DNA of 32,000 nucleotides from an uncultured Actinomycetota bacterium (lineage in GTDB: Bacteria; Actinomycetota; Actinomycetes; Propionibacteriales; Nocardioidaceae), in the NCBI GenBank assembly GCA_963816325.1, contig CAWFKC010000003.1:19643-51642 (forward strand), in the 5' to 3' direction. The notes under the pieces are model-generated. The model was not told the origin of the DNA. It worked only from the letters and a program-made list of their open reading frames with translations, and ran no database searches. Position numbers and translations under genes: made by a program. Positions 5,226 through 28,953 of the stretch are shown piece after piece; within the stretch, counting starts at the first letter, position 1, and every line of letters begins with the position of its first letter.

Positions 5226-6191
5226 TCACCCGTGCAGAGCCGGGACCAGCTCCTGCTCGGCGAAGCGAAGGAAGTCCGCCTGGTGCTCGTCCCCGATCTG
5301 GACCACCGCGACGTCGGTGAAGCCGGCCTTCTCGAAACCCCGGACCGCGTCCACGATGGCGTCCACGTCCGGGCCGCACGGGATGGACCCGGCCACATCC
5401 TCCGGCCGGACGAACTGGGTGGCCCCGGCGAACGCGGACGGCCCCGGGAGCTCGGCGTTCACCTTCCAGCCACCGCCGAACCAGCGGAACTCGCGGTGCG
5501 CGCGCTCGACGGCCCGGTCCCGGTCGGGGTCCCAGCAGATCGGCAGCTGGCCGATCTTGCGCGACTCGCGGCCGCCGGCCGCGTCGTCCCAGGAGCTCAC
5601 CAGCGACGGCTCCGGCTCAACGGCGATGAGGTGGTCCGCCTTCGGCGCGAAGCTCCGGACCGACTGCTCCCCCGAGACGGCCACGCCGATCCGGACCGGC
5701 TCCTGCGGCAGGTCCCAGAGCTTGGCGGAGTCGACGCGGAAGTGCTGCCCGGCGAAGTTCACGTAGCCGCCGTCGAGGAGACCGCGGATGATCGTCAGCG
5801 CCTCGTCGAGCATCTCGTGGCGCACGTTGACCGGCGGCCAGCCACGACCGACCACGTGCTCGTTGAGGTTCTCCCCGGCGCCGAGACCGAGGGTGAAGCG
5901 GTTGTCGCTGAGCAGCCCGATGGTGGCGGCCTTCTGGGCGACGAGGGCCGGGTGGTAGCGCAGGATCGGGCAGGTCACGTAGGTCATCAGGTCGACCCGC
6001 TCAGTGACCTGGGAGACCGCGCCGAGCATGCTCCAGGCGTAGCCCGCGTGGCCCTGCTCCTCCAGCCACGGGAAGTAGTGGTCGCTCATCACCTCGAAGT
6101 CGAAGCCGGCCTGCTCGGCCGCCGCGGCGTAGCGGACCAGTTCGCGCGGCCCGGACTGCTCGGTCATCAACGTGTAGCCGTACCTCGGCAT
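5226..6191 (-). CDS. LLM-class F420-dependent oxidoreductase (luciferase-like, G6PDH-related subfamily)
   Basis: 321 aa, with a GAAGGGAGAG Shine-Dalgarno upstream of ATG 6191. MPRYGYTLMTEQSGPRELVRYAAAAEQAGFDFEVMSDHYFPWLEEQGHAGYAWSMLGA and LGLGAGENLNEH are typical of the TIM-barrel LLM family members annotated as F420-dependent. Confidence 0.85.
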   Translation of the reverse strand: MPRYGYTLMTEQSGPRELVRYAAAAEQAGFDFEVMSDHYFPWLEEQGHAGYAWSMLGAVSQVTERVDLMTYVTCPILRYHPALVAQKAATIGLLSDNRFTLGLGAGENLNEHVVGRGWPPVNVRHEMLDEALTIIRGLLDGGYVNFAGQHFRVDSAKLWDLPQEPVRIGVAVSGEQSVRSFAPKADHLIAVEPEPSLVSSWDDAAGGRESRKIGQLPICWDPDRDRAVERAHREFRWFGGGWKVNAELPGPSAFAGATQFVRPEDVAGSIPCGPDVDAIVDAVRGFEKAGFTDVAVVQIGDEHQADFLRFAEQELVPALHG

Positions 6192-6368
6192 CGACTCTCC
6201 CTTCGTCGCCTTCGTCGCCGGCCCCGTACCCCGAACGAGCAGCCACGATGCTCGGCCACGGCTCGCTCGCGCGTCCCCCGACGCGCGCGACGGGCGCCTC
6301 CACGGTCGATTGCCGCGGATGCGCCCGCCGTCACGACAGTGCGCCCGGTCAGACCCGGGGCGGTCGCG

Positions 6369-6473
6369 TCAGGCCCGGGTGCGGGCTAGATCCGCCATGA
6401 TGTAGTCGATCATCAGCGCAACCAGCGACGCTGCGGACAGGCTCAGCAGTGCGGCCCTGGGCTTCTTTCCCAT
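6369..6473 (-). CDS. Putative 34-aa small membrane protein
   Basis: Below the track length cutoff and read by hand: GAGGAGGA, a 4-nt spacer (CACC), then ATG, encoding MGKKPRAALLSLSAASLVALMIDYIMADLARTRA*. It has a basic N-terminus plus one TM-length hydrophobic stretch, and GC3 is about 80%. There is no homology evidence. Confidence 0.4.
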   Translation of the reverse strand: MGKKPRAALLSLSAASLVALMIDYIMADLARTRA

Positions 6474-6699
6474 GGTGTCCTCCTCGAGGATCTGCCGGGG
6501 TGGCCTCTCCACCCACGCGGAGTGCGCCCGTGCCCCGGATCACAGGTCCTAAACGGGGCCCCGGAAAGTCGCGCGCTGCTGGTCCACCCGGCGGGCCGAC
6601 TGTGAGCCGGGGCCCGCCGACGGGTAACTTCGCACCCGTCCGGTGCGCGGGCCTGCGCCCGCCCGGATGGCCGGGACGACAAGGGGTAATGAGGACAGC

Positions 6700-9225
6700 A
6701 TGGTGGCAACCGGTAGCGAGCACGTCGACCGCGGACCGTGGCGGGACGACGACTCGCAGGTGCCGCACCGGGTGCTGGTGCTCTCCGCCGACATGGGCGG
6801 CGGCCACAACGCCACCGCGAACGCCCTCGAGGAGGCCGTGGCCCGCCTGTGGCCCAAGGCCGAGGTGCGCCGCCTCGACTCGCTCGACGTCATGGGGCCC
6901 GGCATCGGCCCCCTGTTCCGCATGATCTACGTCGGCAACGTGGAGACCACGCCCTGGCTCTACGAGTTCTTCTACTCCAGCCTCTGGCGCAAGCGCTGGT
7001 TCGCCCGCGCCTCCAAGCGGTTCACCGGCAGCTGGTGCGGCCGGATGCTGAGGTCGCACCTCGAGGCGTTCGACCCGACGGTGATCGTCTCGACGTACCC
7101 CCTCGGCACCTCCGGGCTGGAGTGGTTGCGCCGGCACCGGGGACTCGCGGTGCCGGTCGGCGCCTGGATCTCCGACTTCGCGCCCCACCCGTTCTGGGTC
7201 TACGCCGGGATCGACGCGAACTTCGTGATGCACGAGGCCGCGCTCCCGGTGGCGCGGGCCGCGGAGCCGCGCGCCCGCGTGGAAGTGTGCGCCCCGCCGG
7301 TGGTGTCGAGGTTCCGCCCCGGCGACCCGGCGGCAGCCCGCCTCCGACTCGGCCTGCGGGCCGACGCCTTCGTCGTGCTGCTCTCCTCCGGCTCCTACGC
7401 CTTCGGCGACGTCGCGACCACGGTCCGGGCGCTGGTCGCGGCCGGCGACCAGGTCCAGGTCGTCGCCGCCTGCGGCAGGAACGCCGAGGTCAAGCGGGCG
7501 CTGGAGCAGATGGGGCTGCCTCGCGAATCCCTGGTCGCCCAGGGCTGGACCGACGACATGGCCGGCCTCGTGCAGGCCGCCGACGTGGTGCTCACCAACG
7601 CCGGCGGGGCCACCGCCCTGGAGGCGCTGGCGTGCGGCGTGCCGGTGCTCACAGCCTGCCCGATCGCCGCCCATGGCCAGGCCAACGCCGACCTGATGAC
7701 GGTGGCGGGACTGACCGAGCTGTGCGCGGACCACGAGCGCCTGACCGCGTTCGTGCGCGCCGCGGTCCGGGACCGCTCGGTGCTCGAACCGCTGCGCCGC
7801 CGCATCCGCGCCCACAACGACGCCCACGACCTCGAGAGCGGCCTGCGCCGGCTGGCGTACGTCGGGACCGGGCCGGGCTCGCCCCCGCAGGTGGACCGGC
7901 CGTGGCGGGCGCGCTCCGCCGACTCGTTCTTCGGACAGGTGGAGACCGCCGCGGTGCCGCAGGAGCTGGGCGCCGTGCTCGAGCTGGGCCGGCAGCACGG
8001 AGCCTCGCTGGCCGTCGAGGAGCTGCGCCGCGCGCTCGCGCCGCGGATCCCCGGGCTGCCTCCGGCCCGCCGCGAGCTGGTGCGTGGCCGCCGGCTCGGT
8101 TGGCGGCTGCACGGCTCCGCCGACGTCGAGGTGCACGTCCAGGAAGAGGTCGTCGACCCCGGCGCCCCGGAGAGCGCGGTGTGGGACGCGGTCGGCGACT
8201 TCTGGTCCCGGACGCTGCCCGAGGGCCGACCCTCGTGGGAGATGCTGCTGGTGCGCGGCCGCGCGCACGGTCCGGACCTGTTCGCGGTCAAGATGCACCA
8301 CTGCCAGGCCGACGGGATCTCCGCCCTCGGCCTCCTGGACCGGCTGCTGGACCCCGAGCCGGGCGACCGGCTCGTGGAGCGTCGCTCGGTCGCCTCGTCG
8401 GTGACGAAGCGGATGCGCAGTCGCTACCCGCTGATGGTGGCGCGCGGCCTGCTCGCCCTGGCCGGCCGCGGTCTGGCTCCGGCGCACCGGCTCAACGGCA
8501 GCCACGGCCGCGCCGACCGCGACTTCGTCGGCGTGCCGCTGCCGTGGTCGGAGGTGCGCCGGCTCGCCGGCGAGCTCGACCTGCGCCCCCACGAGCTGGT
8601 GATCGCCCTGGTCTCCGACGCCTTGGACCGGCTGCTGCGCCCGGCCGGGCTGCTGACCGCCGGCGCCTCGGGCAGCCGCCCGCTGCGCGCGATGGTGCCG
8701 GTCGCCATGCGGCCGGCGAGACTGGACCGGGTCGCGTTCAACTGGACCGGTTCGCTGGCCGTGGACCTGCCCACCGGGCCGATGCCGTTCCCCGAGCGCG
8801 CCCGGGTGGTCCGCGACGAGCTGCACCGCCGGGCCGGTCGCGGTGAGGCGCCCGCGGCGTCCGCGGTGATGGCCGTCGCCGGCCGGCTTCCCGCGGCCGT
8901 GCACCGCCGGGTGGCGCGCAGCGTCTACACCAGCAAGTTCTTCAACACCGTGGTGAGCTACATGCCGTCCGCACGCGGCCCGCGCAGCCTGGCCGGGGCT
9001 CCGGTGGAGGTGGTCTACCCGGTCCTCCCGCTGGCCCCGCGCGTGCCCCTGACCATCGGCGTGGTGGTCTCCGGAGGCGCGGTGGGCACCGGCATCCTGC
9101 TCGACCGCAGCCTCGGGGTGCGGCGCGAGGACGTGGAGGACGCCGTACGCTCCGCGTTCGCCGACGCCGGCGGGCGGCTGCCGGACCTCGCCGAACCACC
9201 GCAGGTCGTGGGCGGCGAGCCGTGA
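6700..9225 (+). CDS. Fusion protein: MGDG-synthase/UgtP-like GT28 glycosyltransferase (N-terminal) joined to a WS/DGAT acyltransferase (C-terminal)
   Basis: Within track ORF 6643..9225 I prefer ATG 6700 (GGGGTAATGAGGA upstream), giving 841 aa. GT half: VLVLSADMGGGHNATANALEEAV and NAGGATALEALACGVPVL...HGQANADL. WS/DGAT half, from about nt 7945: ADSFFGQVE, catalytic HHCQADG at 8296-8316, and FNTVVSYMPSARGPRSLAGAPVEVVYPV. No stop or frameshift separates the halves. Confidence 0.85.
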   Translation: MVATGSEHVDRGPWRDDDSQVPHRVLVLSADMGGGHNATANALEEAVARLWPKAEVRRLDSLDVMGPGIGPLFRMIYVGNVETTPWLYEFFYSSLWRKRWFARASKRFTGSWCGRMLRSHLEAFDPTVIVSTYPLGTSGLEWLRRHRGLAVPVGAWISDFAPHPFWVYAGIDANFVMHEAALPVARAAEPRARVEVCAPPVVSRFRPGDPAAARLRLGLRADAFVVLLSSGSYAFGDVATTVRALVAAGDQVQVVAACGRNAEVKRALEQMGLPRESLVAQGWTDDMAGLVQAADVVLTNAGGATALEALACGVPVLTACPIAAHGQANADLMTVAGLTELCADHERLTAFVRAAVRDRSVLEPLRRRIRAHNDAHDLESGLRRLAYVGTGPGSPPQVDRPWRARSADSFFGQVETAAVPQELGAVLELGRQHGASLAVEELRRALAPRIPGLPPARRELVRGRRLGWRLHGSADVEVHVQEEVVDPGAPESAVWDAVGDFWSRTLPEGRPSWEMLLVRGRAHGPDLFAVKMHHCQADGISALGLLDRLLDPEPGDRLVERRSVASSVTKRMRSRYPLMVARGLLALAGRGLAPAHRLNGSHGRADRDFVGVPLPWSEVRRLAGELDLRPHELVIALVSDALDRLLRPAGLLTAGASGSRPLRAMVPVAMRPARLDRVAFNWTGSLAVDLPTGPMPFPERARVVRDELHRRAGRGEAPAASAVMAVAGRLPAAVHRRVARSVYTSKFFNTVVSYMPSARGPRSLAGAPVEVVYPVLPLAPRVPLTIGVVVSGGAVGTGILLDRSLGVRREDVEDAVRSAFADAGGRLPDLAEPPQVVGGEP

Positions 9226-10130
9226 TCCCAGGTTTCCTCGTCGCCGTCCCGGCCGCGGTGGCCGCGGCCGCCGCCTTCGGGGGCGCCGGGGTCCTGCAGC
9301 ACCGCGCCACCCACCAGGCGCCGGACCGGCCGGCGCTCAGTCCCCGGCTGCTCCTCGACCTGATCAAGCTCAACGCGTTCCGCTCCGGCGTGATCCTCGG
9401 CGGTCTCGGCTTCCTGCTGCAGGTGGTGGCGCTGCGCTTCGGGCCGCTCGGCCTGGTGCAGCCCCTGCTGGTCACCGGTGTGCTCTTCTACCTGGTCTTC
9501 GGCGCCGCCTACGCGCACCGGCACGTCGACCGCGGGCTGGTCGCGGGCACGCTGATGGCGATCGCGGGGCTGACCGCGTTCCTCGTGGTCAGCCGCCCGG
9601 TGCCCGGTCACGGCGAGTTCGGCTCGGCCGCCGCGCTGCCGCTGGGCGTCGGGCTGATCGGCGTGGTGGTGCTCTGCCTGCTGGTGGCCAGCCGGGTCCC
9701 ACCGGCGATGCGGTCGGTGCCGCTGGCGGTGGCCACCGCGGTGTTCTACGGCGTCACCGCCGGGCTGGTGCGCAGCGTCACCGAGGGTGGGATCGGCTGG
9801 CAGGCGCTCCACCAGTGGGAGCTCTACGCGCTGGTCGTGGTCGGACCCACCGGGTTCCTGCTGAACCAGAACGCCTTCCAGCAGGGCAACGTCGGTGCGC
9901 TGGCACTCGGCACGATCACCGTGGGCGACCCGCTGGTGGCGATCGGCATCGGCGTGGCGTGGTTCGGCGAGGTCATCTCGACCGGGCCGTGGCACATCCT
10001 CGGCGAGATCCTGGCGCTCGCGGTCATGGTCGGCGGGGTCTTCCTGCTCGCCGCCCGCGCCCAGCGGCTCACCGAGCGGATGGAGGCGCAGCGCCCCGTG
10101 CCGCCCGGCATGTGCGGGGCCACCCCGTGA
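9222..10130 (+). CDS. Polytopic membrane protein (about 9-10 TM), DMT-superfamily-like
   Basis: 302 aa. The GTG start overlaps the upstream stop (GTGA 9222-9225). Hydrophobic segments of TM length are evenly spaced (FLVAVPAAVAAAAAFGGAGVL, GVILGGLGFLLQVVAL, LVQPLLVTGVLFYLVFGAAY ...). The family assignment is tentative. Confidence 0.7.
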   Translation: MIPGFLVAVPAAVAAAAAFGGAGVLQHRATHQAPDRPALSPRLLLDLIKLNAFRSGVILGGLGFLLQVVALRFGPLGLVQPLLVTGVLFYLVFGAAYAHRHVDRGLVAGTLMAIAGLTAFLVVSRPVPGHGEFGSAAALPLGVGLIGVVVLCLLVASRVPPAMRSVPLAVATAVFYGVTAGLVRSVTEGGIGWQALHQWELYALVVVGPTGFLLNQNAFQQGNVGALALGTITVGDPLVAIGIGVAWFGEVISTGPWHILGEILALAVMVGGVFLLAARAQRLTERMEAQRPVPPGMCGATP

Positions 10131-10879
10131 CCGTCCTGCGCGAGGCGTCGGTCCTGCTCACCGGCGCCTCCTCCGGCATCGGCCGCGCCGCCGCCGTCGC
10201 GCTGGCCGGCAAGGGCGCCCGGGTGACGCTGACCGGCCGGGACCGCGAGCGGCTGGAGCGGCTGGCGGCCGAGGTCGGCGGGCGGGCGGTCCCCGCCGAC
10301 CTCGCCGACCCTGCCGACACCGACCGGCTCGCCGAGGCCGTGCTCGCCGACGGGGTCCCCGACGCGGTGGTGCACAACGCCGGCGTCGGCCACGTCGGGG
10401 CCGCCGAGGCCACCGGCCCGGCCACCCTGGAACGGCTGGTCCGCGTCAACCTCGCCTCGGCGGTGCAGCTGACCCAGGCGCTGCTGCCCGGCATGCGCGC
10501 CCGCGGCGGCGGCCACCTGGTGTTCGTGACCTCGATCGCGGCCCACCTGGGCGTGCCCGGGGAGTCGGCCTACGCGGCGACGAAGGCGGCCCTGGCGGTC
10601 TATGCCGCGAGCCTGCGCAGCGAGCTCTGCGGTGCCGGGATCCGGGTCACCGAGGTGGCGCCCGGCATCGTCGACACCGAGTTCTTCGCCCGCCGCGGCG
10701 CGCCGTACGAGCGCCGCTTCCCGCGGCCGATGCCGGCGGCGAGGGTGGCCGACCGGCTGGTCGACGCGCTGGAGCGCGACCGGGCCGAGGTCGTGGTCCC
10801 GGCATGGCTGCGGCTCCCCATCGCGCTGAGGTCAGTGGCTCCGAACCTCTACGCGCGGATGGAGAGCCGCTGGGGCTGA
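10127..10879 (+). CDS. Classical short-chain dehydrogenase/reductase (SDR)
   Basis: Track ORF 9815..10879 is over-extended. The GTG at 10127 overlaps the upstream stop (GTGA), giving 250 aa. Motifs are VLLTGASSGIGRAAA (TGxxxGxG), HNAGV (NAG) and S...YAATKAAL (catalytic Ser-Tyr-Lys). Confidence 0.88.
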   Translation: MTVLREASVLLTGASSGIGRAAAVALAGKGARVTLTGRDRERLERLAAEVGGRAVPADLADPADTDRLAEAVLADGVPDAVVHNAGVGHVGAAEATGPATLERLVRVNLASAVQLTQALLPGMRARGGGHLVFVTSIAAHLGVPGESAYAATKAALAVYAASLRSELCGAGIRVTEVAPGIVDTEFFARRGAPYERRFPRPMPAARVADRLVDALERDRAEVVVPAWLRLPIALRSVAPNLYARMESRWG

Positions 10880-10903
10880 GCCCCTGTGCTCGACCGGCTC
10901 AGC
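10875..10903. terminator. Hairpin shared by the convergent SDR and hpnH 3' ends
   Basis: GCTGAGCC (10875-10882) pairs with GGCTCAGC (10896-10903) across a 13-nt loop. The two arms contain the two stop codons (TGA 10877-10879; TCA 10899-10901 on the plus strand). There is no U-tract, so a terminator role is only plausible. Confidence 0.35.
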
Positions 10904-11909
10904 TGCCGGCGGCCGCCCGGATGGTCTCCTTCAGCGAGCCCATCGTGGCCATCACGGCGGTCGGCTCGTAGCCGCAGTGCGCCATGCAGTTGCCGCAGCG
11001 CGGGTCCTTGCCGCGCCCGTAGGCGTCCCAGTCGGTGGTCTCGACGAGCTCCTGGTAGGTGGAGGCGTAGCCGTCCTCCATCAGGTAGCACGGCTTCTGC
11101 CACCCGAACAGCGAGTAGCTCGGGATGCCCCAGGCGGTGCAGCCGAAGTCGACCTTGCCCTCGAGGAAGTCCAGGAACAGCGGCGAGTGGTTGAGGCGCC
11201 ACTTCTTGCGGTTCCCGCCGGCGAACGCCTTGCTGAACAGCTCGCGGGTCTCGGCCACGCCCGGGAAGTGGTCCTGGTCGGGAGCCTTCTCGTAGGCGTA
11301 GGCCGGGGAGATCTGCATGTTGTCGACACCGAGCTCGTCGTTGCAGAAGTTCAGCACGTCGATGATGTTCTGCGGCGTGTCGTTGCTGAAGAAGGTGGAG
11401 TTGGTGTTGACCCGGAAGCCCTTCTCCTTCAGGAACTTGATCGCCTCGACTGCCTCGTCGAAGACGCCCTCCTGGCAGACCGACTCGTCGTGGCGCTCCT
11501 TGAGCCCGTCGAGGTGGATCATGAACGACAGGTACGGCGAGGGCTTGAAGTCGAACTTGTCCCACCACTTGCGGATCAGCATGGCGTTGGAGCACAGGAA
11601 GACGTACTTCTTGCGCTTGACCAGCTCGTTGACGAGCTTGTCGATCTCGGGGTGCATCAGGGGCTCGCCGCCGGCGATGGAGACCATCGGCGCACCGCAC
11701 TCCTCCATCGCGTCGAGCGCCTGCTGGACCGGCATCCGCCGGCGCAGCTCGTCGGCGGGGTGCTGGATCTTCCCGCAGCCCGCGCACTGCAGGTTGCAGG
11801 CGAACAACGGCTCGAGCTCGACGAGCAGCGGGAACTTGTCCCGCTTCTTGAGCTTCTGCTTCATCAAGTAGGCCCCGATGGCGAGGGACTGGCGTACGGG
11901 CATGCTCAT
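10899..11909 (-). CDS. hpnH: Adenosyl-hopene transferase, radical SAM (HpnH)
   Basis: 336 aa. It has the radical-SAM CNLQCAGCGK motif and extended HpnH-typical sequence (FPLLVELEPLFACNLQCAGCGKIQHP, SIAGGEPLMHPEI, FRVNTNSTFF, CTAWGIPSYSLFGWQKPCYLM, CGNCMAHCGYEP). The ATG overlaps the upstream stop (ATGA 11906-11909). Confidence 0.95.
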   Translation of the reverse strand: MSMPVRQSLAIGAYLMKQKLKKRDKFPLLVELEPLFACNLQCAGCGKIQHPADELRRRMPVQQALDAMEECGAPMVSIAGGEPLMHPEIDKLVNELVKRKKYVFLCSNAMLIRKWWDKFDFKPSPYLSFMIHLDGLKERHDESVCQEGVFDEAVEAIKFLKEKGFRVNTNSTFFSNDTPQNIIDVLNFCNDELGVDNMQISPAYAYEKAPDQDHFPGVAETRELFSKAFAGGNRKKWRLNHSPLFLDFLEGKVDFGCTAWGIPSYSLFGWQKPCYLMEDGYASTYQELVETTDWDAYGRGKDPRCGNCMAHCGYEPTAVMATMGSLKETIRAAAGS

Positions 11910-13414
11910 GCGGTGCGTACCTCCTTGGGTAGCGTGAATTTCACGTTCTCGGTGACCACCTCGCGGTTTCGGCTGCGCACCGGGCCCAGCCCCGCCAGCG
12001 CGTCGACCACGTCGTCGACCAGCGCCTGGGGAGCGGACGCCCCCGCGGTGATTCCTACTGTCTTCGCCCCCACCAGCCAGGAGAGGTCCACCTCGTGCAC
12101 GTCGTCGACGAGGTAGGCCGGCTTCCCGAGACGGGTTGCCGTCTCGACGAGCCGCTGGCTGTTGGAGGAGTTCTGCGACCCGATCACCAGCACCAGGTCG
12201 GAGTCCACCGCCACCGCGCTGAGCGCGTCCTGGCGGTTGGTGGTGGCGTAGCAGATGTCGTCGGTGGGCGGCGCCTGCAGCTTCGGGAACCGCGCACGCA
12301 GCGCCTCGACGACGCCCTCGACCTCGTGCGCCGACAGCGTGGTCTGCACGAGGTAGGAGACCCGCTCGGGGTCCTCCACCTCGACGTGCGCCACGTCCTC
12401 GGCGGTCTCCACGAGCACCGTGCGGTCGGGCCGCTCCCCCATCGTGCCCTCGGTCTCCTCATGGCCGGCATGGCCGATGAACACGATGGTGTCGCCGCGG
12501 TCGCCGAACCGGCGGACCTCGGTGTGCACCTTGCTGACCAGGGGGCAGGTGGCGTCGATGATGTCGAGGCTGCGGCGCTGGCCGTCCTCCCACACCTGGG
12601 GGGCGACGCCGTGCGCCGAGAAGACCACGGTGGCGCCCGGGGGCACCTCCGCCAGCTCCTCGACGAAGACCGCGCCGCGCTCCTGCAGGTCGTGCACCAC
12701 ATGCTGGTTGTGCACGATCTGCTTGCGGACATAGACCGGCGCACCGCGCTGCTCGAGCGCGCGCTCCACCACCTGGATCGCCCGCTCCACCCCGGCGCAG
12801 AACGACCGCGGCCCGGCCAGCAGCACCTCGCGCGGTGCTACCGCGTCCGCCCAGGCGAGCAGCGTGGGCGCGACCTCGCTGAGGCCGCGGAGCGCGGTGC
12901 GCATCCGGCCGACGGTGGCCGGGGTGAACAGCGGCTCGGCGGAGGTGTCGGCGACCACCCGCACCACCAGGCTCGGCCGCTTGCCGTCGAGCAGCCAGGC
13001 CGACTCCATGTCCACGGCCAGCGCCCCGGTGGCCGCCAGCGCCTCACGCGAAGCACCGCTGACCACCTTGGCGGCGCTGGTGACCGGACCGACCCAGACC
13101 CGGTGGCCCGCGCGGCGCAGCGCGGCGGCCGCGAGCGGCGCCCCCGGCACCGGGACCGCGGTCCCGTCGGGCCCGCGGACCTCGTCGGCCACCACCACGT
13201 CGCCCGGCTGGAGCCGCGCGTCGAGGGCGCCGGCGAGGCCGACGACGGCCACCGCGTCCGCGTCCTGCAGGCGCGCGCTCTGCGCGGCCCGGACGGAGCG
13301 TTTCTGGCCCATGCCGGTGCGCACGACGCTGCGCTCGGGGAGCGCGGGGGCGCCCCTGCGCAGAGCGCGTTCCTCCATGCGCATCGGAGTGCAGAAAACC
13401 ACGTTCGGTCTCAT
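11906..13414 (-). CDS. hpnG-ispH: Fusion protein: HpnG-like hopanoid-associated nucleosidase/phosphorylase (N-terminal, about aa 1-194) joined to IspH (C-terminal, about aa 195-502)
   Basis: Track ORF 11906..14902 is over-extended. ATG 13414 has a GGAAGGAG Shine-Dalgarno and an ATGA overlap with the shc stop, giving 502 aa. The N-terminal part is PNP_UDP_1-like (AVAVVGLAGALD, ALAVDMESAWL). The C-terminal part is a complete IspH ([50 protein letters not shown]). No stop lies between the domains. Confidence 0.88.
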   Translation of the reverse strand: MRPNVVFCTPMRMEERALRRGAPALPERSVVRTGMGQKRSVRAAQSARLQDADAVAVVGLAGALDARLQPGDVVVADEVRGPDGTAVPVPGAPLAAAALRRAGHRVWVGPVTSAAKVVSGASREALAATGALAVDMESAWLLDGKRPSLVVRVVADTSAEPLFTPATVGRMRTALRGLSEVAPTLLAWADAVAPREVLLAGPRSFCAGVERAIQVVERALEQRGAPVYVRKQIVHNQHVVHDLQERGAVFVEELAEVPPGATVVFSAHGVAPQVWEDGQRRSLDIIDATCPLVSKVHTEVRRFGDRGDTIVFIGHAGHEETEGTMGERPDRTVLVETAEDVAHVEVEDPERVSYLVQTTLSAHEVEGVVEALRARFPKLQAPPTDDICYATTNRQDALSAVAVDSDLVLVIGSQNSSNSQRLVETATRLGKPAYLVDDVHEVDLSWLVGAKTVGITAGASAPQALVDDVVDALAGLGPVRSRNREVVTENVKFTLPKEVRTA

Positions 13415-15312
13415 GTGCGGCTCCTTCCCAGGACGCGCCCCAAGGCGCTGATGGGGAACACGACTCGGTAGAGGTGGTAGGCGATGTAGAAGTCGCCGGG
13501 AAAGCCGGTGCCGGTGAACTGCGGCTCGTCCCAGCCGCCGTCCTCCCGCTGGTGGTCCACCAGCCACTGGACCCCGCGCGCCACCTCGCCGGTCTCCGTC
13601 TCGCCGGCCGCGTGCAGCGCGAGCAGCGCCCACGCGGTCTGCGACGGGGTCGACTCGCCGCGACCGCGCCAGGCGTCGTCCTCGTAGGACCTCAGGTCCT
13701 CGCCCCAGCCGCCGTCGTCGTTCTGGTGCCGGCGCAGCCAGTCCACGGCCCGCCGGATCGCGGGGTGGCTGCCCGGGATCCCGACCTCGACGAGGGCGGG
13801 AACCGCGGCACCGGTGCCGTAGACGTGGTTGGCGCCCCAGCGCCCGAACCAGGAGCCGTCGTCCTCCTGCTGGTCGAGCAGGTAGACCACGCCTCGTCGT
13901 ACGGCGTCGGAGTCGGCCATCCCCTCGCGGGCCAGCGACTCCACCACGTGGGCGGTGACGTCCGCGCTCGGCGGGTCGATGACCGCTCCGAAGTCGCAGA
14001 ACGGCAGCTTGTAGGCGATCTCGCGGGTGTTGTCGACGTCGAAGGCGCCCCAGCCGTCGTTGCCGGACTGCATGTCGACCAGCCACCGGACCGCGCGCCG
14101 CACCGCCGCGTCGGTGTCGGCGCCGGGGGCGCAGCGCCGCAGCGCCATGATCACCTCGGCGGTGTCGTCGGTGTCGGGGTAGAGGTCGTTGTCGAACTCG
14201 AAGGCCCACCCGGCGGCGGGGGTGTCCGGGCGCTTGACCGCCCAGTCGCCCTTGACGCGGATCTCCTCGCGCAGGAGGTAGTCGCGGGCCTGCGCCATCG
14301 CCGGGTGGTCGGGCTCGAGGCCGGCGTCGCCGAGCGCGACGGTGGCCAGCGCGGTGTCCCACACCGGCGACTGGCAGGCCTCGATCCAGCGCACCGGCCC
14401 CTCGGCGGACTGCTCGACGACGGTGAAGCGCTCCCAGCCCTCGATGCCGCGGGCCAGCACCGGGTGGTCCAGCGGGTAGCCGTAGGCGTGCAGCGCCATC
14501 AGCGAGTAGACCCACGGCGGCTGGATGCCGCCCCAGCAGCCGTCGGCCTCCTGCCGCTCGACCACCCAGTCGGCCATCTTGCGCAGCGCCTTGGTGCGCA
14601 GCGCCTTGACCGGCCGGCGCTCGTAGGCGTGCAGCGCCTTGTCGAGCCCGACGAACGCGCGCGCGAGCAGGTCGCGCTCCCGGGTGGAGGCGGCGGGCCG
14701 GCCGGTACGCAGCTCGTCGATGTCGACACCGAGGTCGCGGCGAGGGCGCAGCGCGGAGAGCATCGTGAGGGGGCCGACGGTCTGGCGGGCCCAGCAGGCG
14801 AAGTCGTAGAGGTTCAGCGGGACCTGCGGCGGCAGGAACACCAGCTCCGGCGGCAGCGCGGGCACGTCGTCCCAGGACCACTGGCCGAACAGCGCCAGCC
14901 ACATCTTGGTGAAGACCCGGAGCCCCTCGAGGCCGCCGGCGGCGAGCACCACCTCACGGGCCCGGCGCATGTGCGGCGCGTCGGGCGAGTCCCCGGCCAG
15001 CTTCAGGGCGATGTAGGCCTCGGCGGTCGTCGACGCGTCGGCCGGGCCGCCGTGGTAGATCGCCCAGGACCCGTCCTCGCGCTGGTGGCGCCGGATCCAG
15101 CGGGCGGTGGCCTGGGTCTGCTCCTCGGTGCGGATGCCGAGGAACTGACGCATCATCAGGTCCTCGGCGTCCATCGTCACGTTGGTCTCCAGGACGCCGC
15201 GCCAGTAGCCCTCGGCGTCCTGCCGGCCGAGCAGGTGCTGCACGGCCCGGTCCAGGGTCGCGTCCGCCTCGGGCACGTCGACGCACAGGTCTTCGCGCTC
15301 GGCAAGCGCCAT
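13411..15312 (-). CDS. shc: Squalene-hopene cyclase
   Basis: Track ORF 13411..16002 is over-extended. ATG 15312 (MALAEREDLCVD...) gives 633 aa. It has the DxDDTA motif (YPDTDDTAEV), multiple QW-type repeats (QREDGSW, QEADGCWGG, QSGNDGWG, QEDDGSWFGRWG, QNDDGGWG, QREDGGW) and GWAFEF. Confidence 0.96.
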   Translation of the reverse strand: MALAEREDLCVDVPEADATLDRAVQHLLGRQDAEGYWRGVLETNVTMDAEDLMMRQFLGIRTEEQTQATARWIRRHQREDGSWAIYHGGPADASTTAEAYIALKLAGDSPDAPHMRRAREVVLAAGGLEGLRVFTKMWLALFGQWSWDDVPALPPELVFLPPQVPLNLYDFACWARQTVGPLTMLSALRPRRDLGVDIDELRTGRPAASTRERDLLARAFVGLDKALHAYERRPVKALRTKALRKMADWVVERQEADGCWGGIQPPWVYSLMALHAYGYPLDHPVLARGIEGWERFTVVEQSAEGPVRWIEACQSPVWDTALATVALGDAGLEPDHPAMAQARDYLLREEIRVKGDWAVKRPDTPAAGWAFEFDNDLYPDTDDTAEVIMALRRCAPGADTDAAVRRAVRWLVDMQSGNDGWGAFDVDNTREIAYKLPFCDFGAVIDPPSADVTAHVVESLAREGMADSDAVRRGVVYLLDQQEDDGSWFGRWGANHVYGTGAAVPALVEVGIPGSHPAIRRAVDWLRRHQNDDGGWGEDLRSYEDDAWRGRGESTPSQTAWALLALHAAGETETGEVARGVQWLVDHQREDGGWDEPQFTGTGFPGDFYIAYHLYRVVFPISALGRVLGRSRT

Positions 15313-16328
15313 CAGTAGTCCCTTCCGCTCAACTTGTGGGTCAGCTTGGTGAGGTCCTCGTGGACGTCGGCGGGAAGGCCGAGCCCGTCGAGGATCCGCA
15401 GTGCCGCCTCGGACTCCCGTCGTACGGCGTCCTCGGCCCAGGACTTGCCGCCGGCCACCTCGATCAGGCGGGCCACCTCGGCCAGGTCGTCCTCGGACCA
15501 GGGCTCCTCGGCGGCGTACCTCTCGGCCAGCCGCTGCGCCTCCGGAGTGCCGGACGTCAGCGCGGCCACCACCGGAAGCGACTTCTTGCGCGCCCGCAGG
15601 TCGGACCAGACCGGCTTGCCGGTGCGCTCGGGAGCGCCCCAGATGCCGAGTAGGTCGTCGACGAGCTGGAAGGCCAGGCCGAGGTGCATGCCGTAGTCGG
15701 CCAGCCCCAGCGCGAGCGCGGCCGGGGCGTCGACCAGCACGGCACCGAGCGAGGCGGCGCACGCCAGCAGGGCGCCGGTCTTGCCCTCGGCCATCGCGAC
15801 GCACTCCTCGAGGCTGACCTCCTGGCGCGACTCGAAGGCCAGGTCCTCGGTCTGCCCCGCGATCAGCCTGCGGGTGCAGGCGTTGAGGCAGCGGATCGCC
15901 CAGGCGGTGGTCGGACCGCTGGTCTCGGCCAGGATCTCGTTGGCCAGCGCCAGCAGCGCGTCGCCGGCGAGGATCGCCGAGGAGGTGCCGAACGCCGACC
16001 ACGCGGTCGGCCGGTGCCGCCGCTCCTCGTCGCCGTCCATCACGTCGTCGTGCAGCAGCGAGAAGTTGTGCACCAGCTCCGCGGCCACCGCGGCGGGGAC
16101 GCCCGCCTCGGCGGGTGCACCGGCCGCGCGGGCGGACAGCACGGCGAGCACCGAGCGCACGCCCTTGCCGCCGCCGGCCCCGGGCTGCCCGTCGGCGTCC
16201 CAGTAGCCGAGGTGGTAGCCGCAGACGAACGCCGTGCGCTCGTCGAGGCGGTCCAGGGCAGCGCGCATCGACGGCTCGACGAGCTCGCGGGTGCGCTGCC
16301 AGATGTCCTGGCTGACGGTCTCGGTCAT
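15312..16328 (-). CDS. Polyprenyl diphosphate synthase (FPP/GGPP synthase family; hopD-type)
   Basis: ATG 16328 (MTETVSQDIWQ...) gives 338 aa. The first Asp-rich motif is LLHDDVMDGDEERRHRP and the second is FQLVDDLLG. The position between hpnE and shc matches my recollection of the Streptomyces hop cluster. Confidence 0.9.
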   Translation of the reverse strand: MTETVSQDIWQRTRELVEPSMRAALDRLDERTAFVCGYHLGYWDADGQPGAGGGKGVRSVLAVLSARAAGAPAEAGVPAAVAAELVHNFSLLHDDVMDGDEERRHRPTAWSAFGTSSAILAGDALLALANEILAETSGPTTAWAIRCLNACTRRLIAGQTEDLAFESRQEVSLEECVAMAEGKTGALLACAASLGAVLVDAPAALALGLADYGMHLGLAFQLVDDLLGIWGAPERTGKPVWSDLRARKKSLPVVAALTSGTPEAQRLAERYAAEEPWSEDDLAEVARLIEVAGGKSWAEDAVRRESEAALRILDGLGLPADVHEDLTKLTHKLSGRDY

Positions 16329-17686
16329 GGCGTCCTCACGATCTGGTGCTGGTCGGAGGTGTGGCCCGGGCCGCCGACCATGCCGCCGGCCATGAGACCA
16401 CTGCGGACAGCGCCCTCCATCGTGTCGGGCCACCCGGTGTCGGTCCAGGCGCCGGCCAGCACGAACCCGGGCCAGCGGGTCGCCGGTCCCGGCCGCAGCG
16501 CCCGGCTGCCGGCACGCTGCTCGAAGGTCGCCCGCGGCTCGCGGGTGACCCAGCTGTCGACGACGTTGGCCTGCGCCGCGGCCGGAAGCAGCGCGGCCAG
16601 CCCTCTCAGCTGCGTGTCCCGCAGGTCGGCGTTGACCTGGCCGAGCAGCGGGTTGGCGGCCGAGACCGACACGGTGAGGTACTGGCCGTCGACGCCCGCC
16701 GCGGCGGTCCGGTCGAAGAACCAGGGCACCGGCGACTCGATCGCGGCCGCGAACGGCAGGTCGGTCACGCGCCGGTCGTAGCGGACGTGCACGTTGTAGA
16801 TCGCCGACGCGCCCAGGCCGGCCCACCGGTCGCGGTCCGGGCAGGCTTCCGCGGGAGCGAGCTGGGCCGCCTGCTGGTGGGGGACGGCGAGCACCACGGT
16901 CGCGGCCTCGACGTCGCCGTCGGCGGTGCGCACGACGTAGCCCTCGTCGAGCCGAGCGATCTCCTGCACCTTGCGTCCGACGTGCCACTCGATGCCGACG
17001 CGGTCGAGCAGCGCGCCGGTGGCGGTGTGGTGGATCTCGGAGAGCGGCACCTGAGCCACGCCGATGTCGCCGGCGTCGGCCTCCTCGAGCAGGCCGACCC
17101 GGAACACCATCGCGGCCAGGGCCAGGGAGGCCTCGTCCACGCCGATGTTGAGCGCCGCGATCGTGACCAGGCTCCACAGGTTGGCCAGCGCCCGCTCGGT
17201 CTGCCCGTGCGCCCGCAGCCAGTGGCCGAAGGTCTCCTCGTCGGTGCGCGGGTCGGTGTAGTCGACCTTGCGCAGCGCGGTCATCGCCGTGGCCGCGCGG
17301 ACCCGCTCGAGCGGGCTCAGCGCGGTGTAGCGGGCCAGCGCCACACCGAGGTGCAGGGGTGCCGGGGTGTGCGGCGTACGGCGCAGGTGCAGCACGGAGC
17401 CGCCGGGGCGCACCACCGGGATGTCCATGCGCTCCTGCACCGGGACCAGCGAGTCGACGCCGAGCCGGCGCAGCAGCGCGCGGTAGCCGGTGTAGCACCG
17501 CAGCAGCACGTGCTGGCCGGTGTCGGCGGGGTGCCCGTCGCGCGCGAAGGAGTAGACCGCTCCCCCGAGACGCGGCCGTCCCTCCAGCAGCGTGACGGCC
17601 CAGCCCTGGTCGGCCAGCGTCAGCGCGGCGCTGGTGCCGGCCAGTCCGCCGCCCACCACCACGGCACGGTTGCCGGTCGCGGTCAT
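16325..17686 (-). CDS. hpnE: Hydroxysqualene dehydroxylase (FAD amine-oxidase/phytoene-desaturase family)
   Basis: ATG 17686 gives 453 aa. It has an FAD dinucleotide fold (AVVVGGGLAGTSAALTLADQGWAVTLLEGRPRLGG) and a C-terminal GFVLAGAWTDTGWPDTMEGAVRSG. It sits after hpnC/hpnD, with ATGA overlaps at both ends. Confidence 0.88.
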   Translation of the reverse strand: MTATGNRAVVVGGGLAGTSAALTLADQGWAVTLLEGRPRLGGAVYSFARDGHPADTGQHVLLRCYTGYRALLRRLGVDSLVPVQERMDIPVVRPGGSVLHLRRTPHTPAPLHLGVALARYTALSPLERVRAATAMTALRKVDYTDPRTDEETFGHWLRAHGQTERALANLWSLVTIAALNIGVDEASLALAAMVFRVGLLEEADAGDIGVAQVPLSEIHHTATGALLDRVGIEWHVGRKVQEIARLDEGYVVRTADGDVEAATVVLAVPHQQAAQLAPAEACPDRDRWAGLGASAIYNVHVRYDRRVTDLPFAAAIESPVPWFFDRTAAAGVDGQYLTVSVSAANPLLGQVNADLRDTQLRGLAALLPAAAQANVVDSWVTREPRATFEQRAGSRALRPGPATRWPGFVLAGAWTDTGWPDTMEGAVRSGLMAGGMVGGPGHTSDQHQIVRTP

Positions 17687-18540
17687 ACGGTCCCCCTCGC
17701 CAGCGCGCGGGCGGCCACCCGGAGCTTGTCGGGGGTGCTCAGCGAGACCCGGGTGTCGCGGATCCGCTCGGGGTCGGCGGCGATCTGGTCGAGCAGCCGG
17801 CGGTAGATGCCCGCCATCGCGGCGGTGCAGGCCGCGCTGCGCCGGTCGAGCAGCGGCAGCAGCTGCAGCCCCTCGTCGTACCAGCGCGCCGCCCGCTCGG
17901 CCTCGAAGCGCACCAGCGCGGCGAGGTTGGCCGGCGGGTCCACGAGCCGGCCGCGGGAGTCGACGTCGAGCGTGCACTCGAAGCGCTTGAGGTCCTCCTC
18001 CGGTAGGTAGATGCGACCGTTGACCCGGTCCTCGCGCACGTCGCGCAGGATGTTGGTCAGCTGCAGGGCCACCCCGAGGGAGTCGGCCAGGCCCCAGGCA
18101 CGGTCGAGCCGCGGCGGGGAGTAGACGCCCACGGAGAGCCGGCCCACGGAGCCGGCGACCCAGCGGCAGTAGCCGACCAGGTCGTCGAAGGTGCCGTAGC
18201 GGTGCACGGTCACGTCCGCGCGGCAGCCGGAGACGATCTCGTCGAAACCCTCGAGCGGCACCGGGAAGCGCTCCAGCACGTCGGCGAGCGCCTGCACGAC
18301 CGGGTCCTGCGAGGCCGGGTCGAGCGGGTGCAGCTGCTTCTGGACCTCGTCGAGGCCGGCGAGCTTCTCCTCGTCGGGCAGGTCGCCGTCGCCGATGTCG
18401 TCGATGCGCCGGGCCATCGCGTAGATCGCCGACAGCGCCTGCCGCTTCGCGGTCGGCAGCAGCCGGATGCCGTAGGAGAAGTTGCGGGCCTCGCTGCGGG
18501 TGATGGCCTCGCAGACGGCGTAGGCGGTCTCGAGCTTCAT
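17683..18540 (-). CDS. hpnD: Presqualene diphosphate synthase (squalene/phytoene synthase family)
   Basis: ATG 18540 gives 285 aa: YAVCEAITRSEARNFSYGIRLLPTAKRQALSAIYAMARRIDDIGD, YCRWVAGSVG, LQLTNILRDVREDRVNGRIYLP. The hpnC versus hpnD assignment rests on gene order and N-terminal motifs. Confidence 0.85.
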   Translation of the reverse strand: MKLETAYAVCEAITRSEARNFSYGIRLLPTAKRQALSAIYAMARRIDDIGDGDLPDEEKLAGLDEVQKQLHPLDPASQDPVVQALADVLERFPVPLEGFDEIVSGCRADVTVHRYGTFDDLVGYCRWVAGSVGRLSVGVYSPPRLDRAWGLADSLGVALQLTNILRDVREDRVNGRIYLPEEDLKRFECTLDVDSRGRLVDPPANLAALVRFEAERAARWYDEGLQLLPLLDRRSAACTAAMAGIYRRLLDQIAADPERIRDTRVSLSTPDKLRVAARALARGTV

Positions 18541-19367
18541 CCGGGCCTCCTCACCGACGCGGCGACAAGCGCGCCGAGGATCTCCCGGGAGGTGGGCTTG
18601 GGCACCCCCGCCAGCGTGTCGTAGCCGTGGCGCTTGATCCCGGCGGCGGCGGCGCGGCCACCGCTGATGTAGCCGGAGACCGCGAGGCGTGCCCAGCCGT
18701 GCAGCAGCGGCACCAGGAACGCGCCGGCGTCGATCCAGGCCAGGGCCCGGTCGGTCTCGAAGCCGACGAGGTCGACCAGCTCCGCACTCGCCCGCGGGGC
18801 GGCCAGCATCTCCTCGGTGACACCGAAGGCGCGCATGTCCTCCTGGGGGAGGTAGATCCGCCCGTCGCGGTAGTCCTCGGCGAGGTCCTGCCAGTGCTCG
18901 ACGAGCTGCAGCCCGGTGCAGACCCGGTCCGAGAGCGCGATCCGGTCGGGGTCGGCCGCGCCGAAGAGGTAGAGCACGATCTCGCCGACCGGGTTGGCCG
19001 AGAGCGCGCAGTAGCCGAGCAGGTCCTCGAAGGTCGGGTAGCGGGTGACGTGCTGGTCCTGGAGGTTGGCCTCGACCAGTCGCAGCCACGGGTCGGCGGG
19101 CACACCGGAGGCCTCGACCAGGGGAGCCAGGTCGCGGACCACCTCCAGGCGCGCGCCCCGTCCGTCGTACAGGCTGCGGACGTCGTCGGCGACGTCTCGC
19201 AGCGCGCGCTCGCGGTCACCGGTCGACTCGTCGCCGAGGTCGTCGACGTAGCGCGCGTAGCGGTAGAGAGCGAGCAGGTCGCGGCGCACCCCGGCCGGCA
19301 GGATCCGCATCTGGACCGGGAAGTTCTCGTGGTGCGCCTTCTGCTCGAGCAGCTCGGCCTGGGTCAC
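18537..19367 (-). CDS. hpnC: Hydroxysqualene synthase (squalene/phytoene synthase family)
   Basis: 276 aa. The GTG start overlaps the dxs stop (GTGA). Motifs are [47 protein letters not shown] and [22 protein letters not shown]. Confidence 0.85.
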
Positions 19368-28818: not shown

Positions 28819-28953
28819 GGTGTGACGGTAACCACAAAACGGGCGTTCCATGCGTCGCCACGCATAAACGCGAACCCGCGGCCTAGGCCAGGCCCCGGTG
28901 ACCCGGACCATGGCTAAACTCGCCGGCAACCTCCGTCCCCCCGAAAGGTGGCC

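Follow-up and report, generated by a model that had tools for sequence, protein, structure and literature searches.

Hopanoids, the sterol analogues of bacteria, have given rise to some of the most abundant molecular fossils, and the enzymes that tailor their side chains are known mainly from Proteobacteria. Acylated isoprenoid glycosides include staphyloxanthin (made with CrtQ/CrtO), the carotenoid glycoside esters (CruC/CruD) and the acyl steryl glucosides of plants or Helicobacter. These systems use separate enzymes, namely GT2, GT4 or GT1 glycosyltransferases and membrane-bound or PldA-type acyltransferases. Here we analysed a fusion gene in a 32,000-nucleotide stretch of contig CAWFKC010000003.1 from an uncultured Actinomycetota bacterium (this whole stretch is called the window). 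The gene joins a glycosyltransferase (GT) of the GT28 type to an acyltransferase (AT) of the wax ester synthase/diacylglycerol acyltransferase (WS/DGAT) type, and its operon lies beside a hopanoid gene cluster.

HpnI and HpnK are described, in a 2026 review and in Schmerk 2015 as cited elsewhere, as encoded with hpn genes and acting on the side chain of bacteriohopanetetrol (BHT). BHT-glucosamine, BHT cyclitol ether and glucuronosyl-BHT are listed in the reviews. The step from ribosylhopane to BHT has no assigned enzyme and is 'predicted to be nonenzymatic' (2026 review). A 2025 preprint on the microsynteny of hopanoid loci noted some Actinomycetota without known downstream hopanoid-modifying enzymes. 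It reported only hpnT and hpnS, which were restricted to diderm bacteria, and the fusion gene is not among its families. Our literature searches on the fusion architecture or its hopanoid link found nothing relevant.

Our analysis suggested that the fusion may serve hopanoid tailoring as an accessory enzyme, adding a sugar and an O-linked acyl group to a C35 bacteriohopanepolyol, and we put the chance of this at about even. A preliminary description of the window, made from its letters, had reported an uninterrupted 841-codon frame that fuses a GT28/MGDG-synthase-type GT to a complete WS/DGAT-type acyltransferase. The open reading frame (ORF), the Shine-Dalgarno sequence, the codon-position GC content and the homologues all supported the frame, and sequence, profile and fold evidence agreed on the fusion. 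The elements of the gene are the following.

6700-9225, + strand: fusion gene, 841 codons plus stop, GT28-type glycosyltransferase joined to a WS/DGAT-like acyltransferase (ORF, Pfam, homologues, AlphaFold2 model)
6691-6695, + strand: Shine-Dalgarno sequence GAGGA, 4 nt before the ATG at 6700 (read in the sequence)
6757-7863, + strand: GT-B glycosyltransferase half, residues ~20-388 (MGDG_synth and Glyco_tran_28_C in Pfam, solved relatives, Foldseek)
6796-6807, + strand: G-loop GGGH, residues 33-36 (alignment with MGD1)
7597-7686, + strand: donor-site signature T-N-A-G-G...E308...P-I-A-A-H-G-x-A-N, residues 300-329 (alignments; subclade-specific)
7864-7911, + strand: inter-domain linker, residues ~389-404 (alignment columns 480-540; length varies among homologues)
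7912-9165, + strand: WS/DGAT-like acyltransferase half, residues ~405-822 (WS_DGAT_cat and WS_DGAT_C in Pfam)
8296-8316, + strand: catalytic motif HHCQADG (HHxxxDG), residues 533-539 (sequence, alignment)

The open frame runs from 6643 to 9225 (+) and encodes 860 amino acids counted from a GTG or 841 from the ATG at 6700. This ATG is the likely start, because GAGGA precedes it by 4 nt, the aligned homologues start at the equivalent Met, and the gene already called in NCBI/ENA encodes an identical 841-amino-acid protein. The GC content by codon position was 0.77/0.54/0.95 in the fusion frame, which supported the coding strand and the frame. An antisense ORF of 851 amino acids (6349-8904) was rejected as the usual high-GC artefact. 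Neither an Rfam match nor a sigma-70-like promoter was found in the 500 nt upstream of the gene. A terminator-like GC hairpin with a T-rich tail (7903-7921, +) lies inside the ORF exactly at the junction of the linker and the AT domain; with 0.5 such sites expected at random, this single one is not significant.

Pfam hits were judged by gathering thresholds and NCBIfam hits by the model cut-offs. All four Pfam domains predicted in the preliminary description scored above these thresholds, and the motifs it had quoted were found where it had located them, HHCQADG at 8296-8316 included. Its domain boundary at about residue 415 was corrected to residues ~389-404 (nt 7864-7911).

In the GT half, MGDG_synth covered residues 36-183 (45.3 bits, threshold 25) and Glyco_tran_28_C covered residues 231-353 (32.1 bits, threshold 22). 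Its sequence matched those of UgtP (9wde, E = 2e-23) and MGD1 (4wyi, E = 3e-16), and its fold matched that of MGD1 (4x1t; Foldseek E = 7.8e-16, TM (target) 0.75). The segment VLVLSADMGGGHNATANALEEAV stands at residues 25-47. His36 of the GGGH loop aligns with His155 of MGD1. The latter has been proposed to act as the base on the acceptor hydroxyl and is essential, the H155A mutant being inactive (PMC12022483). G33, G35 and H36 were invariant among the 118 aligned sequences.

The donor site of the GT half, with NAGGATALEALACGVPVL...HGQANADL at residues 300-332, showed another pattern. An invariant Asn300 takes the place of the Lys of UgtP/MGD1, and Ala-His-Gly (H325, G326) takes that of Gly-Gln-Glu, so that the T-K-x-G lysine and the G-Q-E donor motif of these enzymes are both missing from the fusion. 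The N...HG form was found in 134 of the 142 full-length members. The score against NF010135, the diglucosyl diacylglycerol synthase equivalog model, was 114.8 bits, below its cut-off of 500. Stand-alone GTs share the Asn/His-Gly signature, as do relatives with a fused CE4 deacetylase, including P0155 and P0161, the two deacetylase fusions in which this motif was read. The GT half thus appears to belong to a modular glycolipid-tailoring subclade of GT28, and the sugar donor of this subclade may be other than UDP-Glc or UDP-Gal.

Several GT-half relatives have other fusion partners. In P0155, P0160, P0161, P0216, P0235, P0238 and P0212 the partners are CE4 deacetylases, N-terminal NAD-dependent sugar epimerases or PAP2_3, the PAP2_3 phosphatase being that of P0212. 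Given its CE4 deacetylase partners, that sister group may use an N-acetylhexosamine donor. P0153 is a genuine single-domain GT relative with 47% identity and an unrelated genomic context. At one locus (L083), a GT-CE4 fusion at 9317-11110 is adjoined at 8347-9243 (-) by a remote homologue of the DMT-family protein encoded downstream of our fusion (26% identity, E = 3e-7), and a second CE4 gene and a dTDP-sugar isomerase come next. GT and DMT may form a core pair with interchangeable tailoring domains.

The AT half begins with ADSFFGQVE at residues 407-415. WS_DGAT_cat covered residues 407-583 (65.6 bits, threshold 23.6), and WS_DGAT_C covered residues 681-820 (40.0 bits, threshold 20.7). H534, D538 and G539 of the catalytic motif were invariant in the 118 sequences, and H533 was at least 90% conserved. 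The AT half matched the solved Ma-WS/DGAT (6chj) and AbWSD1 (7nxg) both by sequence and by fold (Foldseek E = 1.1e-24 and 2.1e-22, TM (target) 0.75 for both). Against TIGR02946, the wax ester/triacylglycerol synthase family, it scored 166.8 bits, below the cut-off of 309.95. The AT half is thus a divergent enzyme of the WS/DGAT type that presumably uses acyl-CoA.

A stand-alone WS/DGAT is encoded at 29905-31548 (-) of the window and scored 469.8 bits with TIGR02946, above the cut-off. The genome therefore already has an ordinary wax-ester/triacylglycerol synthase besides the fusion. The proposed alignment of the C-terminal block of the AT half with this protein was borne out, with 26% identity over the full domain (E = 1e-26). 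This canonical gene adjoins an alpha/beta hydrolase gene at 28948-29892 (+).

AlphaFold2, run with the 118-sequence alignment, modelled the fusion protein with a predicted local distance difference test score (pLDDT) of 92.9 and a predicted TM score (pTM) of 0.92. These values argue for a fixed packing of the two domains rather than beads on a flexible linker, and the model indicates that both are rigidly packed in one polypeptide. The linker was the least confident internal stretch (pLDDT ~74 for block 391-400). Foldseek against solved structures found no single chain covering both domains. The literature searches likewise returned no characterised enzyme of this architecture, as the preliminary description had supposed. 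The GGGH-type and HHxxxDG motifs were both kept in nearly all of the ~140 members. The fusion is thus predicted to be a genuine bifunctional enzyme with two apparently competent catalytic domains.

The fusion is a large, conserved family that is widespread in Actinomycetota. A public protein search gave 445 matches at E<=1e-10, and among the best 120 of them nearly all were 780-905 amino acids long with the same domain architecture. More than 110 full-length collinear homologues were found, including some in complete genomes. The carriers in the protein search were Nocardioidaceae, Actinopolymorpha, Sinomonas, Intrasporangium, Antricoccus, Micromonospora, Plantactinospora and Actinocatenispora. 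A genome scan with one genome per species gave 233 matching stretches, of which the best 80 loci were analysed; both halves were spanned in all 80, and Arthrobacter, Amycolatopsis, Saccharopolyspora, Gandjariella, Microlunatus and Streptosporangiales were added to the carriers. An exhaustive search of 50%-identity representatives gave ~30 full-length clusters. The preliminary description had allowed that the architecture might turn out to be common and already functionally assigned. It is common, but the databases give it only generic names ('wax ester/triacylglycerol synthase domain-containing protein', 'MGDG synthase family glycosyltransferase').

Some relatives differed in form. One Nocardioidaceae metagenome-assembled genome (MAG; L088) has a TAG at 1294-1296, in the codon equivalent to window 7981-7983, attributable either to a sequencing error or to recent inactivation. 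Two apparent stand-alone ATs (P0148 and P0149) start at the domain boundary and were rejected as such: they begin at positions 52 and 7 of short contigs. The DMT gene still follows the AT in both contigs, and the SDR (short-chain dehydrogenase/reductase) gene follows too in that of P0149. The family consensus at the boundary is 'WPMRxADAFF' (WRARSADSFF in the window, residues 402-411). Most homologues thus have a Met at the start of the AT domain, where gene callers begin contig-edge genes, and this explains the false stand-alone ATs. No true split form was found among the relatives, and there is therefore no Rosetta-stone evidence either way. In a Streptosporangiales MAG (L051), a second, stand-alone AT-like ORF of ~411 amino acids (12529-13764, +) directly follows the fusion gene.

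The fusion opens a fusion-DMT-SDR operon, which adjoins a complete hopanoid cluster, with these genes downstream.

9222-10130, + strand: DMT-family polytopic membrane protein, 302 amino acids (NF038012 DMT_1, 98.7 bits, cut-off 50)
10127-10879, + strand: classical SDR, 250 amino acids (adh_short, 148.8 bits)
10899-11909, - strand: hpnH, adenosyl-hopene transferase (TIGR03470, 506 bits, cut-off 225)
11906-13420, - strand: hpnG-like nucleosidase/phosphorylase (PNP_UDP_1) and ispH (LYTB) in one ORF (domain scan; start approximate)
13411-15318, - strand: shc, squalene-hopene cyclase (SQHop_cyclase_N 422.8 bits, SQHop_cyclase_C 461.6 bits; start approximate)
15312-21232, - strand: polyprenyl synthase, hpnE-like amine oxidase, two SQS_PSY genes (hpnD, hpnC) and dxs (Pfam)

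The GTG start of DMT overlaps the TGA stop of the fusion, and the GTG start of SDR overlaps the TGA stop of DMT. Because both junctions are such start/stop overlaps (GTGA), the three genes form a translationally coupled operon. hpnH is convergent with SDR, and their stop codons are 19 bp apart. Upstream of hpnH, on the same strand, the order is hpnG-ispH, shc, polyprenyl synthase, hpnE, hpnD, hpnC, dxs and a MarR regulator. The window ORFs scanned include no hpnO aminotransferase, and an NCBIfam scan of the fusion matched none of the named Hpn family models (HpnA-P, R).

The linkage between the fusion and the hopanoid genes was examined by tblastn of the window neighbours against the best 80 species-level fusion loci, 44 of which have at least 9 kb on both flanks. 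DMT was near the fusion in 72 of the 80 loci (42 of the 44 with full flanks) and SDR in 66 (36 of 44). Any hopanoid gene was near it in 55 of the 80, and hpnH or shc lay within 10 kb in 31 of the 44. The counts over all 80 underestimate the linkage, because many of these loci are truncated. Linkage was kept through several rearrangements: in Micromonospora DMT has been relocated upstream, on the opposite strand, the hopanoid cluster is inverted in L049, and it lies on the opposite side in Amycolatopsis (L072, L074, L078, L079) and in L039, L045 and L050. It was also kept where unrelated genes are inserted between SDR and hpnH (L048, L064, L073). An insertion at the same place in L008 is listed as ORFs only. 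These results showed that the linkage of the fusion to hopanoid genes is conserved across many families and orders and several rearrangements.

The inserted genes scanned in L048, L064 and L073 were considered as extra tailoring genes and rejected; besides regulators they comprise a defence gene, a methyltransferase and a FAD-binding protein. Under the label 'Candidatus Melainabacteria', two MAGs (L070, L071) carry a complete actinobacterial-type fusion-DMT-SDR-hpnH-shc block, and their taxonomic label or binning is probably wrong.

The converse test started from hpnH. Eighty metagenome hpnH loci with 74-84% identity were fetched, and 48 of them, with at least 2.5 kb beyond hpnH, were evaluable. 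An AT of the fusion subclade stood beside hpnH in 7 of the 48, four times in the canonical trio and three times in variants. In two variants (L150 and L151), an SDR and a 532-amino-acid WS/DGAT-like protein (L150, 8619-10217; L151, 6539-8137 (-)) stand beside hpnH. Of the GT half, this AT retains a stretch of ~40 residues, homologous to residues ~99-142, and it looks like a fusion with a decayed GT domain. In the third variant (L124, 2557-7755), hpnH is accompanied by an SDR, a PAP2_3-WS/DGAT fusion (732 amino acids), a GT4 glycosyltransferase and an LPG_synthase_TM protein (HpnL-like). This locus is a non-orthologous version of the fusion-DMT-SDR toolkit beside hpnH. The ATs of these three loci scored 179-182 bits with the fusion family versus 43-102 bits with the canonical WS/DGAT.

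Other evaluable loci carry other genes in the slot after hpnH: a PMT_2 (GT-C) glycosyltransferase in 11 of 48 (L127, L131, L134 and others) and a MacB/FtsX-type ABC exporter in 17 of 48 (L114, L126, L131, L138 and others). These genes may be alternative modules for hopanoid transport or tailoring. With PMT_2 or MacB/FtsX in the same slot, the region after hpnH looks like a variable tailoring and transport slot, and a minority of actinobacterial hopanoid clusters carry the fusion-DMT-SDR trio as one such accessory module. SDR was the most constant companion of the hopanoid-linked ATs, being present also in the GT-less L150 and L151 and in L124.

Three further observations concern the neighbouring genes. 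The hpnG-ispH ORF is continuous (~504 amino acids); in 35 of 45 related loci a single in-frame tblastn match covered both domains, and the pattern recurred in most metagenome hpnH loci. This looks like a conserved HpnG-IspH fusion, predicted for actinobacterial hopanoid clusters. In the divergent intergenic region upstream of the fusion, at ~6386-6478 (-), there is a 31-codon hydrophobic ORF (MGKKPRAALLSLSAASLVALMIDYIMADLAR) with a strong GAGGAGG ribosome-binding site, and it was conserved (90%) only in the closest relative, L001. An F420-dependent LLM-class oxidoreductase (5226-6191 (-); TIGR03557, 487.5 bits) is divergent from the fusion operon and is probably unrelated to it, because this gene was found upstream of the fusion in L001 only.

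The preferred reading, an accessory enzyme of hopanoid tailoring, starts from the domains with their conserved catalytic motifs, the rigid two-domain model, the operon and its linkage to hopanoid genes. From these we infer the acceptor, the donors, the products, in which order and with what regiochemistry the reactions proceed, and what SDR and the DMT protein do. HpnH and HpnG would make ribosylhopane, and SDR would reduce its open-chain aldehyde to give BHT. The AT half could then esterify a side-chain hydroxyl with acyl-CoA, by a wax-synthase logic with the hopanoid as the 'fatty alcohol', and the GT half could add a sugar from a UDP-sugar to another hydroxyl. The acyl-glycosyl hopanoid would be flipped or exported by the DMT protein. 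The AT and SDR kept beside hpnH in L150 and L151, with only a remnant of the GT, suggest that the AT is not limited to the sugar added by the GT and acts directly on the lipid.

SDR is a candidate for the reduction of ribosylhopane to BHT. In a wider and more tentative proposal, which we hold possible without favouring it, the operon would be the actinobacterial pathway after ribosylhopane: SDR would be the ribosylhopane reductase, the fusion would make acyl-glycosyl bacteriohopanepolyols, and the DMT protein would flip them to the outer leaflet.

Several points weigh against a hopanoid acceptor. No acyl-glycosyl hopanoid is in the reviews of hopanoids, and none has been reported from the carrier taxa. 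The nearest characterised homologues of both halves use diacylglycerol (DAG). PAP2 phosphatase fusions of relatives of both halves fit the conversion of phosphatidic acid (PA) to DAG at least as naturally as they fit hopanoids. The CE4-deacetylase-fused GT relatives, considered as hopanoid neighbours by analogy with HpnI/HpnK, were rejected in that role since they are not adjacent to hopanoid genes. No hopanoid gene was found within 10 kb in 13 of the 44 full-flank loci, which share no alternative lipid context beyond DMT and SDR. Part of the synteny could also be co-regulation of membrane-lipid genes rather than a shared pathway.

In the first alternative, which we regard as possible but rather doubtful, the fusion would be a glycerolipid enzyme whose GT glycosylates DAG, while the AT acylates the sugar or glycerol of the glycolipid, or makes or consumes DAG, and its position beside hopanoid genes would reflect co-regulated membrane remodelling. 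The closest characterised homologues are indeed DAG glycosyltransferases (UgtP, MGD1) and DAG/alcohol acyltransferases (6chj, 7nxg), the PAP2_3 fusions of P0212 and L124 would suit the supply of DAG from PA, and the 13 loci away from hopanoid genes agree with it. However, it leaves unexplained both SDR and the hpnH/shc linkage, which is kept across orders and rearrangements, and the same toolkit recurs beside hpnH in a non-orthologous form. Both halves score far below the cut-offs of the canonical DAG-glucosyltransferase and WS/DGAT models, which we counted for the hopanoid reading, and the UDP-sugar site is systematically unlike that of UgtP/MGD1. A canonical WS/DGAT (TIGR02946, 470 bits) is already encoded at 29905-31548. 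The fusion itself would also be unexplained, because a GT and a DGAT would compete for the DAG acceptor instead of acting sequentially. The preliminary description had proposed DAG or a generic membrane lipid as the acceptor. This agrees with the nearest characterised homologues, but a bacteriohopanepolyol is better supported, because the operon abuts hpnH and the linkage is conserved.

It is less probable still, and in our view unlikely, that the fusion tailors another isoprenoid or secondary-metabolite alcohol, such as a squalene-derived C30 carotenoid, a polyprenol or a non-membrane surfactant-type glycolipid. Squalene is supplied by hpnC, hpnD and hpnE of the adjacent cluster, and acyl-glycosyl isoprenoids are a recurrent natural-product theme, with the acylated carotenoid glycosides made by CrtQ/CrtO or CruC/CruD as precedent. 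Marinobacter WS/DGAT enzymes also accept isoprenoid alcohols. Against this, the neighbours found most consistently, hpnH, hpnG and shc, are genes of the C35 hopanoid side chain and not carotenoid desaturases, and no CrtN- or CrtP-type gene was seen in the window.

We find it very improbable that only one half is catalytic and the other is a degenerate membrane anchor, substrate-binding or regulatory module. The Asn and His-Gly in place of the donor-site Lys and Gln-Glu of UgtP/MGD1 could be taken as decay, and in L150 and L151 the AT half indeed survives beside a short, decayed remnant of the GT half. However, N300, H325 and G326 are invariant and common to the stand-alone and deacetylase-fused GTs of the subclade, which indicates a functional alternative donor site, and the conservation of the GGGH-type and HHxxxDG motifs across the family also argues against a dead half. 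Finally, an assembly or annotation artefact joining two separate genes, a doubt raised in the preliminary description, can practically be dismissed: L088, the one relative of at least 90% identity annotated as two genes, is split by a single in-frame GAG->TAG inside the AT domain and not at the domain boundary, P0148 and P0149 are contig-edge truncations, AlphaFold2 packs both domains confidently, and the collinear homologues noted above, complete genomes included, refute an assembly-induced fusion.

The interest of the fusion lies in making two open questions testable, with the operon as a concrete candidate for both gaps: hopanoid tailoring in Actinobacteria and the identity of the reductase that converts ribosylhopane to BHT. 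If the hopanoid reading is true, acyl-glycosyl bacteriohopanepolyols would be a previously undescribed lipid class and a bacterial counterpart of the acylated steryl glycosides. Such conjugates may have been missed or misassigned in soil bacteriohopanepolyol surveys and could be unrecognised soil biomarkers. If the acceptor is a glycerolipid, this would still be the first functional assignment for a large, generically annotated family, and the predicted structure would offer an example of two interfacial lipid enzymes in one rigid polypeptide.

Compared with the known systems, the GT half resembles the processive diacylglycerol beta-glucosyltransferase UgtP/YpfP and plant MGD1 in its predicted GT-B fold, its MGDG_synth and Glyco_tran_28_C domains and its GGGH motif, and like them it appears to be an enzyme of the lipid-acceptor type. 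Unlike them, it is joined to an AT, has the Asn300/Ala-His-Gly donor site and stands in a hopanoid rather than a glycerolipid context. The AT half shares its domains, the HHxxxDG motif and the fold (TM 0.75) with the WS/DGAT family (Acinetobacter AtfA/AbWSD1, Marinobacter Ma-WS/DGAT, mycobacterial Tgs). In contrast to canonical WS/DGAT enzymes, it falls in a distinct subclade that is found beside hpnH and fused to GT28 or PAP2. Both parts are thus assigned to known superfamilies (GT28 GT-B and WS/DGAT), each outside the canonical functional subfamilies.

The fusion is conceptually like HpnI/HpnK (the BHT-GlcNAc transferase and deacetylase of Burkholderia and Rhodopseudomonas), in that a GT would be paired with a sugar-modifying enzyme for the BHT side chain. 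It differs from them in being built from unrelated protein families, and the partner activity would be acylation and not deacetylation. The bacteriohopanetetrol phenylacetate monoester of Frankia, an actinobacterial BHT with an acyl ester on its side chain, is a precedent for the hopanoid O-acylation proposed here, and there was no Frankia homologue of the fusion among the matches listed. As in the acylated isoprenoid glycosides, the proposed product would carry a sugar and a fatty acyl group on a polycyclic or isoprenoid lipid. Unlike the separate enzymes of those systems, the fusion is predicted to have both activities in one GT28 plus WS/DGAT polypeptide. In conclusion, set beside these systems, the fusion is an uncharacterised, widespread bifunctional architecture with a previously unreported hopanoid link.

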